A stretch of 64,000 bases of DNA from an uncultured virus (IMG/VR IMGVR_UViG_3300025723_000019) (lineage: Duplodnaviria; Heunggongvirae; Uroviricota; Caudoviricetes): positions 1-64,000 of IMG/VR virus record IMGVR_UViG_3300025723_000019; one strand, 5' to 3'. Position numbers and translations under genes: made by a program. Below the pieces are notes generated by a model. The model was not told the origin of the DNA and searched no databases. It was given only the letters and a program-made list of their open reading frames with translations. Positions 2,976 to 34,546 of this stretch are shown here, one piece after another; position 1 is the stretch's first letter; each line of letters begins with the position of its first letter.

Positions 2976-3608
2976 CTACAGTCGCCAGTCGTTGTTTTGG
3001 AAAAACCCGATTGGCGCAATCCCCCCGGCCATATTTGGAACGATGCGACGGCCCTGAAGGTTCAGTTCCGTCAACGCCCACACGAGCGCATCCACGCGGT
3101 CAGGTGAAGTGGAGCCACGAGTACCCGGTGCCGGTGGCACCCACGTTGTCATCTGTTCCTCTAGGTCGGCAAATTGCTCCGGTGGGCCAACGTGGTGAAT
3201 CCGGCCCTGCTCGTAGAGAGCGACAATGGGTTCGGCTCGTGCTTTCTTGGAGTAGCGAGCATTGGGTCGGTTAATCGGCATCATTGGCCGGATGGTACGC
3301 ATCACGGATTCAAGGAGTTCGTGACCTTGGTTCGATTCGATGACCACGATGTTGGCGTTCCATTCGTCGTAGGCTCGCACCACTCGCTGCGCCCAGCGTT
3401 CGACGGAGTTCTTATTCGCGGCTGGAAGGCTGGCATCTTCCAAAACGTAGCCGTGGACTTCGCAGTGACGCACGACGCAAGTGTCAGGCTGATGCGGGCC
3501 AGCAGCCACTACGACGATGCCTGTCTCGTCGGCGTTCTCCCCGGATGTCACGGCAGGGTCAACCCCCACGACGATTTTGGTGAAGTCGCTCGGATTGACT
3601 TCAATCAC
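2976..3608 (-). CDS. terL: terminase large subunit, nuclease (RNase H-like) domain as separate ORF
   Basis: IVVGVDPAV, DETGIVV, IESNQG, SPDRVDALVWA motifs; GTG start overlapping upstream TGA, with GGAG RBS. Confidence 0.85.
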   Translation of the reverse strand: MIEVNPSDFTKIVVGVDPAVTSGENADETGIVVVAAGPHQPDTCVVRHCEVHGYVLEDASLPAANKNSVERWAQRVVRAYDEWNANIVVIESNQGHELLESVMRTIRPMMPINRPNARYSKKARAEPIVALYEQGRIHHVGPPEQFADLEEQMTTWVPPAPGTRGSTSPDRVDALVWALTELNLQGRRIVPNMAGGIAPIGFFQNNDWRL

Positions 3609-4936
3609 ACTGTCTCCAAGATTTTCCAAATCGCACGGCCCTGTTCAATCATCTCCTGTGTCCACATCGCACCCTCTACGTCTAGGAGCAGGACACCTTT
3701 CAGTTCCTGTTCTCCAATCCGGGTACCCTCATAGGCCGTGAGGACTGATTCACGGAATGACGGAGCAAGGTTTTCAAGGTTGTCGTAGGTGGAGCCGTTG
3801 GTGACCACCGTGGTTCGACGTTCCATTAACTCCCGCACGAGACGCACACGCTTCGGGGTTGTGGTCACGAGGACCTTTGGATTTTCACCAAGGCGCAGAC
3901 CCAGCATCAGGTTGTTCCACGAAGTATCCAACACATCGCCCTTGGGCGCATCTCGCCACGCGGCTAACTCATCGCAGTTATGAACGAGGATTCCACTAGC
4001 AAAAAACTCGTGAGAATCCTCAACCGTCAAGTCGTAGACTGCGCCTCTCTGCCCGTTCCGCAATACGGCGGAGACATATTGCCCGCCGCCTTGGGTTTCC
4101 ACCTCATCGCCACTACGCAGAACTTGCGCCTCCGCCCAATCGCCATTTGCCCAGATGCGGTGATTTGGGGTGCAACGCAAGACGTTCCCTGCCTCGGTGT
4201 GGATTTCCAGCACCTCTGCGTCGGGGTTCGTCATTGTGGCTGCGAGGACTTGCTTCCAGCCATCACGAGTGGCGACAACATCCCCAACAACAACTTCTTC
4301 AATTGGAATTTCACCACGGCGAGTGACAACACATTCGCCCTCTGCCACGCACCACGCAGCGTCGTGCTGTGGGCCACGGAGTTGGCTAGGGGTGTGGGCA
4401 GAGTAGGTGAACGCCTCTGCGCCATTGGGCCAGACGAGCCGCCGTTTGGAAGGCTCGTGCAGTGGGCGAGGGTGAGGCTCCGAGCAGTTGAGGATTCCAC
4501 TGTCCCCGCCAATCATCACGTCTCGTACGTCGGCAGGAGTTCGGCCTACGAGAGCAATGCGCTTGTAGCCGTGGTTCCATACCAAGTCCAAAACCCACTC
4601 GGCACCGGCACGGGTCTTGCCCGTTCCACGGCCCCCACTGAAAAACCACGTCAACCACGGGTCGCCCTCTTTGTCCTTTGGAGGACGCTGTGGAGTACGG
4701 GCGTGTTTACAAAAGGGTGTGTGCTTCCCGTCAATGGGATGTTCGCACCAGTGAAATCCTGCGTGGGGGTTGCCGTTGCACTCGGTTCGTGGGCAGTACC
4801 AGCGACGCTGAGGGGCGTTCTCTAGGAGTTCCAGTTCCTTGAACACCACTGCCAAGTCGGTCTTGTCCAAGCCGAGAAGAATCTGCTTGCGCTGCTCAGG
4901 GGTTGCATCTAGCAACTTTTGGATGATGGGGTTCAC
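3605..4936 (-). CDS. terL: terminase large subunit, ATPase domain, intein-containing
   Basis: Walker A GGRGTGKT, LRGPQ..AAW(C)DE Walker B, VTTTPK motif. Confidence 0.9.
   Translation of the reverse strand: MNPIIQKLLDATPEQRKQILLGLDKTDLAVVFKELELLENAPQRRWYCPRTECNGNPHAGFHWCEHPIDGKHTPFCKHARTPQRPPKDKEGDPWLTWFFSGGRGTGKTRAGAEWVLDLVWNHGYKRIALVGRTPADVRDVMIGGDSGILNCSEPHPRPLHEPSKRRLVWPNGAEAFTYSAHTPSQLRGPQHDAAWCVAEGECVVTRRGEIPIEEVVVGDVVATRDGWKQVLAATMTNPDAEVLEIHTEAGNVLRCTPNHRIWANGDWAEAQVLRSGDEVETQGGGQYVSAVLRNGQRGAVYDLTVEDSHEFFASGILVHNCDELAAWRDAPKGDVLDTSWNNLMLGLRLGENPKVLVTTTPKRVRLVRELMERRTTVVTNGSTYDNLENLAPSFRESVLTAYEGTRIGEQELKGVLLLDVEGAMWTQEMIEQGRAIWKILETV
3977..4351 (-). mobile_element. mini-intein (125 aa, no endonuclease) in terminase Walker B
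   Basis: starts CVAEG, block B CTPNHRIW, ends VYDLTV..HEFFASGILVHN followed by +1 Cys. Confidence 0.9.
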
Positions 4937-32260: not shown

Positions 32261-32884
32261 TCAGTCGCCGTAGTAGGACCAGTCGGGCTCTTGATGACCG
32301 TTCGCAATGTCGGCATCAAGGTCCGAGCCAGTGCCGTTGGCGGCGAAAAGATTAGCGACAGCATCCTTGTAGGTTCCTACCTGCTTGCCGGTTCCCAACT
32401 CGTAGATAGGGTCACTCAAGGAGTGTGGCGTTCCATCTGCTTCTTCTTTGCCAGTGGTGGAGAAACTCAGACCGGGAAAATCCCTTCTGTCCGTACTCAA
32501 GTCATCGGTGTACGTCAACACCTTTTGGGGCGACGCACGCAGCGTGGTGTCAATGTGGTTGCCATCGTCCGAGCCTTGAGCGTGAAAACTTATCTCTCCG
32601 TTGTGTTCAACTTCGATTTCACCGTTGCTAATCCAGAAGGGAAGGCCATCTTCTGCTCCCCCTCGCCTCACGAGGAAGGTGGAACCGTTTCTCCCCGGCT
32701 CTACGTGAAAGTCGGGAAGATTGGGGAAATAGGGGTTGAGTGGCTTAGGGGCTGTACCGCCCGTCTCTTCCTTTGTCCACTGGTTTCCGTGAAATTCGTG
32801 GCCGGGCAGGTCGCCCTTCTTGATAGCGGTAAACGCCTTACCAATGGGGTCAAGGTTGTCGGGATGGAATGGGTTGGTGTTCAT
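32261..32884 (-). CDS. leader-family protein with unknown acidic cargo
   Basis: NPFHP..IKKGDLPGHEFHGNQW leader; TAGGAT -10 six nt before ATG. Confidence 0.75.
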   Translation of the reverse strand: MNTNPFHPDNLDPIGKAFTAIKKGDLPGHEFHGNQWTKEETGGTAPKPLNPYFPNLPDFHVEPGRNGSTFLVRRGGAEDGLPFWISNGEIEVEHNGEISFHAQGSDDGNHIDTTLRASPQKVLTYTDDLSTDRRDFPGLSFSTTGKEEADGTPHSLSDPIYELGTGKQVGTYKDAVANLFAANGTGSDLDADIANGHQEPDWSYYGD

Positions 32885-32893
32885 AATCTAATC

Positions 32894-33454
32894 CTACCTT
32901 AGGGGTGTGACATTTTCAAGTGCTGCTGAATGGGCATCGAACAACTGTTGTGGCGTGACGGTGTAGATATCTCCCAAGTCAATGTAGAAGCCACCGAAGC
33001 GCAGTGCCTCGCCACCGAGTGCTGAACAAATCCACGAGCCGGGGCGACGGAACGCCACAAACCACTCAGGGGTCAGCACGTCAATCGCAATGCAAGCGAT
33101 GGTGAGCAAGCCATAGGGGTCACCCAGTTGGTCGTTGGCAAACTCGGCCACCTTGGTCGGGTCGCAGTTGACAGGTGGGTGCAGCACCGTGACCAGTTCG
33201 GCAGCATCGGAGATTTCACTGAACCGGGACAGGATGATGCCGTGGACTGGAGTGGCTTGGACAACGAGGATGCTGTCGTAGGTGTCGCCAGCCTTGACCA
33301 CCGTAAAGACGTGGTTGTAGGTGGTGTGGTGGAACTTGATGCGCTCGCCAATGCGGATGAGCCGACCTACTTGCCCGTTGGTCTTGGCGTAGCCCGTGTC
33401 CCCCACTCGGATTTCACTGGGATGCAGGTTGATGGAGCAGGGAATGGAAGTCAC
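32894..33454 (-). CDS. permuted papain-like (NlpC/P60, YiiX-like) amidase
   Basis: VGD..YNHVF before GDPYG and WICSAL; VTPQQL. Confidence 0.75.
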   Translation of the reverse strand: MTSIPCSINLHPSEIRVGDTGYAKTNGQVGRLIRIGERIKFHHTTYNHVFTVVKAGDTYDSILVVQATPVHGIILSRFSEISDAAELVTVLHPPVNCDPTKVAEFANDQLGDPYGLLTIACIAIDVLTPEWFVAFRRPGSWICSALGGEALRFGGFYIDLGDIYTVTPQQLFDAHSAALENVTPLR

Positions 33455-33482
33455 ACCAAAATGCTACAGCCGAGTTTGGAAA

Positions 33483-33974
33483 ATGGCGAAAGCCCCACCC
33501 AAAGGTGAGGCTCGTCGCTTTACTGCTCTCACTACCCAGCCCCGAAGGTTTAGTCTGCCTGCTTAGTTCTCCCCGATGTTGCTGGTTCGCCCCGTATGAC
33601 AGCACCGGATAATGGCACCGCAGTTCTCGGTTTCATTCGATAAGTCTGGCAGAACCACCCTGCTCGCCCACACGCGTCCAAGTGGAAGGGTAAGCCCAGC
33701 CTGCCAGCCTGCTCGCGCTCGTCACTCTTTGGCGTAGAACTCAAATTGGGATTTCCCGTTCTAAGCGGTAGCCCCACCTCACAACGGTGCCTTAGAAGCC
33801 CGTTGCCCAAAGTGGTTCTCCACACCCATCGAATGGTGACTTGTAATCTCTAGGCGAGGTGCGAGTAAGCAAACGTTGGGTTTGTGCTAGCCGAAGCAAC
33901 AAGGCCTACCGCACACCCCCTAGAAACTACAAATCGGTTTTCAAGGAACTCCGTAGAACCAACTTCGCCCTACA
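33483..33974 (-). ncRNA. candidate large structured ncRNA, family unassigned
   Basis: own promoter; long stems with G-U pairs (33919-33932/33841-33854; 33811-33835/33634-33659); terminal hairpin; no credible ORF. Confidence 0.65.
33490..33512 (-). terminator. terminator-like hairpin
   Basis: AGCCTCACC-TTTG-GGTGGGGCT followed by TTCGCCATTT. Confidence 0.55.
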
Positions 33975-33980
33975 TAAACC

Positions 33981-34009
33981 AGTGTACAGTACCGGTGTCA
34001 CAAAGTCAA
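33981..34009 (-). promoter_or_regulatory. sigma70-type promoter
   Basis: TTGACT-17-TACACT; spacer TTGTGACACCGG. Confidence 0.7.
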
Positions 34010-34045
34010 GTCATTTCCAAAACTTTTTTTGGTGATGTTGGAAGC

Positions 34046-34546
34046 CTAAAGTTTTAGGCCGTACTGCTTGGCGAGCAAGGGGTTGTCTTCGACCCATCCG
34101 TTGTGGAAGTCACACAAGGTGATGACGTTCTCCATATTCAAGATGTTCTCGTCGGTGCGCCCTGCCTTGGCCCGGCTCAGAAGTTCGTGGCCGTGGATTT
34201 CACCGAAGCATTTTGGAAGTCCAGCGTTCGGTGGAGCGTACTCAAAGAACCGACACTCCCAAGTCCGGGGGTCGCCAAACTTTTCCACCATTCGCTTCTT
34301 GCGTTCGACGTTGACCTCACGGCGATGGTCGCTCACTGGCTTCAGTGGTGTGCGCTTCATCACTTTGGAAGCCTTGACTGCTGATTCTCGCTGGGTTGCC
34401 TGCCACCGATTTGCTTGGCTGCGCTTCTTGGCTCCGTCGCAGGCTCTACAGGCTGGTGAATAGGCTCCCGGCCTGTCTCTGCGCTCCGTGAAGTCGCTCA
34501 GGGGCTTCCACTCGTTGCACTTACGGCAACGCTTCTTGTCGCTCAC
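34046..34546 (-). CDS. HNH-like endonuclease with N-terminal Zn finger
   Basis: CRKC..CRAC; HGHELLSR..NVITLCDFHNGWV. Confidence 0.7.
   Translation of the reverse strand: MSDKKRCRKCNEWKPLSDFTERRDRPGAYSPACRACDGAKKRSQANRWQATQRESAVKASKVMKRTPLKPVSDHRREVNVERKKRMVEKFGDPRTWECRFFEYAPPNAGLPKCFGEIHGHELLSRAKAGRTDENILNMENVITLCDFHNGWVEDNPLLAKQYGLKL

Follow-up and report, generated by a model that had tools for sequence, protein, structure and literature searches.

The locus described here is most likely an optional cassette in which a phage promoter, a 5' hairpin and an rRNA-type boxA precede three RNA modules and a terminator-like hairpin. It lies in the window, by which we mean the whole stretch of DNA that was analysed (64,000 nucleotides), the first 64 kb of a 121,340-base complete phage record with terminal repeats. 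That the locus specifies a real structured RNA is close to certain, and that it does so as a cassette of independent units is highly probable. The preliminary description had proposed a single RNA of about 490 nt; the stems it listed close separate modules, which occur apart in relatives, and the cassette RNAs are uncatalogued and built differently from that proposal. The features, with the two flanking genes, are as follows.

34046..34546, minus strand: upstream flank, HNH/endonuclease VII-like gene (PHROGs matches)
33981..34009, minus strand: sigma-70/SigA-type promoter TTGACT-17-TACACT, belonging to a phage promoter family found across the genome
33953..33973, minus strand: 5' leader hairpin (by folding), which would hold the same place as boxB in rRNA leaders
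33937..33949, minus strand: boxA antitermination site GTTCCTTGAAAAC, 25 nt after the predicted start
33840..33933, minus strand: module A, a long irregular hairpin (z -6.4)
33634..33835, minus strand: module B (z -4.2; six homologs)
33791..33797, minus strand: B loop 1, UUCUAAG, invariant in 6/6, putative kissing partner
33759..33765, minus strand: B loop 2, CUUAGAA, putative kissing partner
33522..33624, minus strand: module C, two closing stems (z +0.6, a weak fold)
33479..33518, minus strand: terminator-like GC-rich hairpin (z -5.9), common to the cassettes of this phage group
32894..33454, minus strand: downstream flank, permuted papain-like amidase (PF05708 in homologs)

The earlier observation that no credible ORF occupies this part of a gene-dense genome holds up: ORFs of at least 100 aa span 91% of the genome, the locus sits in one of 16 uncovered gaps of at least 250 nt, and coding was rejected for the small ORFs that overlap it. 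A 63-aa ORF over C (33605-33414) meets an in-frame stop in 99%-identical relatives, the core of C shows no synonymous change, and one-base gaps run throughout the B alignment. For the minus strand the folding energy is -202.2 kcal/mol (z -3.45; 0/100 shuffles as good), and the plus strand gives z -1.27 (10/100 shuffles as good). Modules A (94 nt), B (202 nt) and C (103 nt) fold independently, with linkers of about 5-10 nt, and both long stems proposed earlier are found where they had been placed, one closing A (33932-33919 with 33854-33841) and the other B (33835-33811 with 33659-33634). Other intergenic stretches of low z (12 shuffles each) were seen at G000 82186 (+, -5.8), window 8882 (-, -5.0) and window 101 (+, -4.1).

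The genome carries terminase, tail, tape-measure, RusA-like and HslV-like genes. At default settings, no tRNA gene was found in its 121 kb, nor any tRNA or tmRNA at the locus; a relaxed ARAGORN run, with 189 implausible calls, was discarded. An actinobacterial host is likely but weakly supported, on the strength of a single relative of the downstream gene in the prokaryote collection (34% identity, in an Actinomycetes assembly) and of a boxA matching the rRNA leaders of that phylum. The downstream papain-like protein itself has no Pfam match. The HNH-like gene is not an obligate partner: a copy 88% identical stands in L161 with no cassette behind it. Elsewhere in the window, the terminase large-subunit gene (3605-4936, minus strand) carries an intein/HINT domain. 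A GH(E/P)F(H/R)GNQ motif is common to small flanking proteins (window 32261-32884, minus strand; L018 3359-3850) whose C-terminal parts are unrelated to each other; the window protein matches no Pfam or PHROGs family.

The promoter had been recognised earlier at 34009-33981, and it is there; its family is represented 9 times in the genome, where shuffles give 0.1, and the L387 cassette is preceded by a near-identical one. The leader position likewise holds a hairpin, of other sequence, in L015, L016, G026 and L387. The boxA-like site noted at 33949-33937 proves to be the same as host rRNA-leader boxA in sequence and lies near the 5' end. Among 61 genomes from the likely host phylum, 12 match its pattern, and 20 loci were examined: a 16S start lies within 262 nt in 12, five are cut by contig ends but have the same leader sequence, and three are not rRNA. 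The exact phage 13-mer stands 105-262 nt upstream of the 16S start in 7/7 of the actinobacterial loci that carry it. Promoter plus boxA occurs in three places in 52 phage records, all at cassettes, with no control match. Because boxA is missing at six related loci (G010, G014, G018, G019, L018 and L056), antitermination would not be universal. The arrangement resembles the rRNA operon leader (boxB-boxA; PMC10250234, as far as its available text describes it) in having a hairpin, then a host-identical boxA, then long terminal helices; it differs in that the products are neither rRNA nor tRNA and in the six loci that do without boxA.

At the 3' end, the terminal hairpin of the preliminary description is present, and its pattern was found in 6/53 records, each time at a cassette end, with no control match. 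Its standing as a terminator is less complete: the terminator scan did not call it, owing to a short U-tract, although two relatives have a U-run behind it.

Similar boxA sites were met at other viral loci. A variant, GTTCTTTGAAAAC, lies at L262, an AT-rich locus with a strong promoter, where about 500 nt of purine-rich, GC-richer non-coding sequence run from the boxA match, with no Rfam match. From position 1201 of L217 and L250, two related viral loci, the same boxA precedes some 330 nt of non-coding sequence that both have in common and that looks structured; no Rfam match was found in it. At L227, L261, L290 and similar viral loci, the boxA word plus ATA stands, by eye, just before frames that we take to be integrase-like.

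The strongest evidence for separate units comes from relatives. Loci were gathered via the two flanking proteins, DNA patterns and whole-record searches, and they show twelve arrangements, the empty site included.

A+B+C: window; L010-L014, L019
A'197+B+C: L009 (A allele of 197 nt)
A'230+B+C: L016 (A allele of 230 nt)
C alone: L015, L017 (leader joined directly to C)
C+D: L018 (no boxA; D between C and hairpin; next gene differs)
part of C: L056
empty site: L161 (HNH-like gene straight to downstream flank)
B+E behind boxA leader: G026; L387 (elsewhere in genome)
B+D: G014 (B elsewhere in genome)
X+B+G+E: G018 (B elsewhere in genome)
E alone: G010
X+unnamed segments+E: G019

It is this distribution that argues for module independence. 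With four different sets of neighbours, and at three genomic sites, B remains intact and still covaries, and D is 89% identical between G014 and L018 despite different neighbours. In three relatives (G010, G014, G018) the first gene listed downstream of the cassette lies on the opposite strand, which points to action in trans and not to cis control; patchy presence points to an accessory role. In L018 (2958-3128) and L056 a zinc-finger-like short frame enters module C where promoter and leader would otherwise stand, as if the 5' end of the cassette had undergone an insertion or rearrangement.

Model searches placed B in 4/52 records, with G001 and G055 bringing it to six; model R3 (for C) scored only three known carriers among 53 records, and model R2 added no record among 52 and gave 0/151 in genomes of the likely host phylum, a weak search that scored only 16 candidates per genome. 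Because most records are fragments, these absences are soft. DNA pattern scans of viral contigs, with matches mostly due to chance, yielded no new carrier from 36 loci; later scans yielded L056 from 99 loci, none from 9, none from 93, and L387 from 80. A strict B pattern had no match in the prokaryote genome collection, and BLAST searches of 50,697 phage records and 72,556 plasmid records returned only matches of 34 nt or less, mostly to the end hairpin.

Covariation shows the secondary structure of B as a stalk and four-way junction. The stalk, of about 25 bp with an invariant G.G mismatch, leads to the junction, from which two short hairpins and a long third arm emerge. The six B sequences are 48-98% identical and amount to about four independent lineages (pairs at 93% and 98%). 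On a MAFFT alignment, 92.3% of 431 cells are paired in the consensus, and 26/72 pairs (46 cells) change on both sides; shuffles (n=500) give 11.9±2.3 pairs and 15.1±3.2 cells, none reaching the observed values, a margin inflated by relatedness, and slid registers give at most 10 pairs changed on both sides, a control inflated by deriving the structure from the same alignment. Covariation among homologs, which the preliminary description had looked to as a check, thus exceeds shuffles in this module. The stalk is not in doubt, with double changes in 11/25 pairs and 96% pairing. The long arm is less certain in G014 and G018, the two most distant sequences, where it aligns poorly and where forcing the consensus gives about -63 to -64 kcal/mol vs about -101 to -103 free. 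Three nested stems had also been proposed. CAACGG/CCGUUG is in the six-sequence consensus; UAGAAC/GUUCUA (29/36 cells pair) and CUUUGG/CCAAAG (31/36) lie outside it, their bases being used there by other helices; these two stems came from a single-sequence fold. CUUUGG/CCAAAG could be an alternative state.

Module A is present in the window as its short allele, the module measuring 197 nt in L009 and 230 nt in L016. In its outer 15 bp, comparison with L016 gives three double changes, two single changes, one broken pair and nine unchanged. The long allele (A') shares a stalk motif with B (G-U, G.G, then UGG/CCA), from which the window allele has lost the mismatch. Conservation marks module C as real, with a fold that is provisional: an A-rich core of 54 nt (33591-33538) is identical in all carriers compared, and the stems are paired in 115/115 cells, with seven variable pairs all kept and one double change, a covariation not above shuffles (91/500). 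Module D was found in two records and E in five, with double changes in 12/32 predicted E pairs across four sequences; neither occurs anywhere in the window genome. Further uncatalogued D, E, G and X sequences were seen in L454 1420-2030 (G018), L455 1475-1850 (G014), L349, L387, L350 and L483.

The two short loops of B yield the sharpest prediction. They are complementary at all seven positions in six sequences (42/42 cells, with no both-side change), loop 2 having one A-to-G change that keeps a U-G pair, and 13/14 loop columns are invariant vs 13/73 other unpaired columns, a conservation partly ascertained, in that L387 was found by a pattern with both loops and G014 and G018 by a loop-rewarding model. 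Two given 7-mers would match by chance at about 5e-5, or 2e-3 with G-U allowed. Pairing of loop with loop in B is therefore probable as read from the complementarity itself; covariation does not prove it, since the loops are near-invariant and three of the six sequences came from loop-rewarding searches. In the window, the loop-1 bases can alternatively close a short hairpin.

The partners may belong to one molecule or to two. In kissing-loop geometry, stiff arms from one junction would struggle to meet, and the loop-2 arm of G018 is an unbroken 10-bp helix; together with the precedent of pRNA and manA, this leads us tentatively to favour pairing between B molecules. An internal loop contact is nearly as likely, and with it a doubtful but possible reading in which B is a compact monomer with bent arms and internally kissing loops, serving as a ligand- or protein-binding fold or a ribozyme. 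The two B arms, about equally long, come off one junction, internal loops interrupt both in 4/6 sequences, and raiA offers a loop pseudoknot with a sharply bent P3 (PMC12968392, in its available text), but the continuous G018 arm speaks against such bending and no raiA match was obtained in either direction.

The same two loop words recur in a family that precedes a capsid-like gene of other phages, but there they pair with each other as a plain stem; the family has no R1 score, and the sharing is treated as convergence. Separately, L367, L374, L379, L406, L431 and about 20 similar loci, from a group of other phages, have a conserved structured element that lies between two genes, of which the second looks capsid-like by eye; its only score is a weak one for beta-tmRNA (18.4 bits).

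The tests that were applied place the cassette RNAs in no known RNA family. Rfam gave no match in the window at gathering score; E-value searches of the locus and of the relatives' cassettes returned only low-scoring hairpin matches. ROOL and GOLLD models gave nothing at gathering score in the window and nothing up to E 10 over 33300-34100 or in relatives' cassettes. The absence of tmRNA ends and of an RNase P motif, noted at the outset, was borne out for the tRNA-end and RNase P motifs tried: its P4 motifs are absent, and Rfam has no RNase P match. The c-di-GMP-I model (RF01051), tried for module C, had no match in G000 or G002 up to E 10. Likenesses to group I intron P4/P7, the RNase P S-domain (D), c-di-GMP-I (C, E), raiA, manA and the tmRNA 5' end (A) all failed where they could be scored. 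As far as paper listings go, no description of these RNAs was found in the literature. The catalogue of 10,006 viral candidate RNAs in PMC10690425 has, in the available text, models of at most 151 nt; five short module motifs are absent from three of its supplements, and module fragments may be in the catalogue.

What stands of the preliminary description is a promoter-driven, boxA-bearing structured non-coding transcript, supported by covariation, by the boxA comparison and by the empty Rfam searches. Membership in a ROOL/GOLLD-like class or a new one had also been suggested; the uncatalogued structured transcript survives, and the single large RNA of that class does not. ROOL and GOLLD are phage and prophage RNAs that form RNA-only assemblies, each folding as one unit of about 580 to more than 800 nt and often lying close to tRNA islands (PMC12286853; PMC5737381; available portions); the present RNA shares with them its phage-borne structure and differs in its interchangeable 100-230-nt units, lack of tRNAs and lack of model score. 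Closer analogues, on present comparison, would be the short kissing-loop phage RNAs pRNA and manA, with the locus a member of neither. According to the accessible text of PMC4201828, pRNA of the phi29 family is essential, has a three-way junction and multimerises by intermolecular kissing; B likewise has a long stalk, a junction and two complementary loops, and differs in its four-way junction, 7-bp complement, patchy distribution and absence of Rfam match. The manA RNA lies in 5' regions of genes in cyanophages and Photobacterium (PMC2864571; bioRxiv 10.64898/2026.07.01.735769) and forms closed 8- to 60-mers through intermolecular kissing loops (the same preprint, both sources in their available parts). 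B, at about 200 nt, phage-borne and multi-helix, resembles it in those respects, its assembly being only predicted; unlike manA it sits in a stand-alone cassette, and RF01745 did not score in 5/5 records up to E 10. The raiA RNA is again about 200 nt, with a long P1 with conserved defects, and is present in the likely host phylum, but in the available text of PMC12968392 the loop pseudoknot pairs a hairpin loop with a downstream segment, the linker, whereas that of B would pair it with a second hairpin loop. The raiA model RF03072 scored in 0/4 phage records (control genome 153 bits), and reciprocally model R1 gives the raiA stretch fragment scores of only about 3 bits.

It could also be asked whether the arrangements are stages in the loss of one large ROOL/GOLLD-type RNA decaying by deletion in some lineages. 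The cassette has one promoter and one end hairpin, a short repeat at the L015 junction fits deletion, L009 and L056 look like deletion products, and A' and B have a stalk motif in common. This account is nevertheless unlikely and largely refuted by the intactness of B with four neighbour sets at three sites, as well as by the want of D and E in the window genome, of an Rfam match and of a tRNA island. It is equally improbable that C and the hairpin form a riboswitch or attenuator for the downstream papain-like gene. C does have an invariant A-rich core just before the hairpin and a same-strand gene, and L015 is exactly promoter, C, hairpin and gene; yet L018 has D between C and hairpin with a different next gene, the same hairpin follows E elsewhere, L161 is without a cassette altogether, and no riboswitch model scores.

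Anticodon loops follow the pattern Y-U-NNN-R-N, and both B loops, near-invariant in a phage without tRNA genes, fit it (CU-UAG-AA, UU-CUA-AG), so that they might be read as mimics acting as decoys for host tRNA-cleaving defence nucleases. We think this quite improbable: any pair of complementary loops would show the pattern provided that U stands at position 2, the stems differ from the 5-bp stem of an anticodon arm, and ARAGORN at default settings makes no call. A role for B as a packaging RNA ringing the portal would accord with the pRNA-like plan of stalk, junction and two complementary loops and with the position of the G026 and L387 cassettes near a gene that we take, from its translated sequence, to be terminase-like. 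Its likelihood is lower still, as pRNA is essential (PMC4201828, in the part available) but the L015 and L161 loci have no B, none was found in the 91%-complete G010, and in the window B lies in a cassette 28 kb from the terminase gene. Least credible of all is that the cassette is what remains of an intron or of a HEARO/OMEGA-like mobile RNA linked to HNH, a view for which an upstream HNH-like gene in the window, L015, L018 and L056 and a clean presence/absence site would speak, but which is belied by the HNH gene without RNA in L161, by B, D and E without an HNH gene, and by the lack of an intron or HEARO score or of an interrupted gene.

With moderate confidence, then, the whole is read as an operon of accessory phage non-coding RNAs whose units can be exchanged. 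Transcription by host RNA polymerase would begin at the phage promoter, and boxA, judging from its identity with host rRNA boxA, would load the host rRNA antitermination (Nus) complex. An untranslated transcript of about 495 nt could thereby escape premature termination and fold while being made, with A, B and C each closing on its own terminal helix. The modules would act in trans, either tethered or trimmed apart by a presumed processing step. The two 7-nt loops of B would form a 7-bp kissing helix; between molecules, this might build rings or cages, as in phi29 pRNA and manA, and such assemblies might serve during infection as a scaffold or decoy for host factors, the most plausible accessory role though rather doubtful. 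In its working the cassette would be akin to a phage stable-RNA operon, with B perhaps behaving as pRNA or manA does. In T4, the stable RNAs rnaC and rnaD are small structured RNAs cut from a polycistronic non-coding precursor in a tRNA cluster; they are likened to the cassette RNAs by description only, and the T4 set, unlike the present one, lies in a tRNA cluster. A bolder extension, speculative and on the unlikely side, would make the rRNA-style operon a plug-in rack for at least six uncatalogued RNA folds, with B self-assembling free of protein and the G.G stalk motif of A' and B serving both modules as a handle, either for processing or for a protein that binds there.

The locus bears on the role of phage-encoded structured RNAs such as ROOL, GOLLD and manA, and it offers several new folds at one place along with natural gain and loss alleles, including an empty site. 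For B, the prediction is compact and host-independent: 200 nt, two loops and seven pairs. Should B assemble, it would be another natural RNA nanostructure. Should units be shuffled under one antiterminated promoter, RNA genes would be exchangeable cargo to phages, and a scan that looks for one large RNA would get the size of such loci wrong.

A second cassette was noticed on the minus strand of the window at 6477-6225 (z -5.65), with a promoter, a boxA variant GTTCCTTGACAA, an RNA of about 160 nt and a related end hairpin. This RNA has no Rfam match and was not found in 52 related records; the B model gives it a weak, stalk-only score of 12.5 bits. It has a long stalk and, by eye, a likely H-type pseudoknot, GCCAAG/CUUGGC with CGUAUG/CAUACG.
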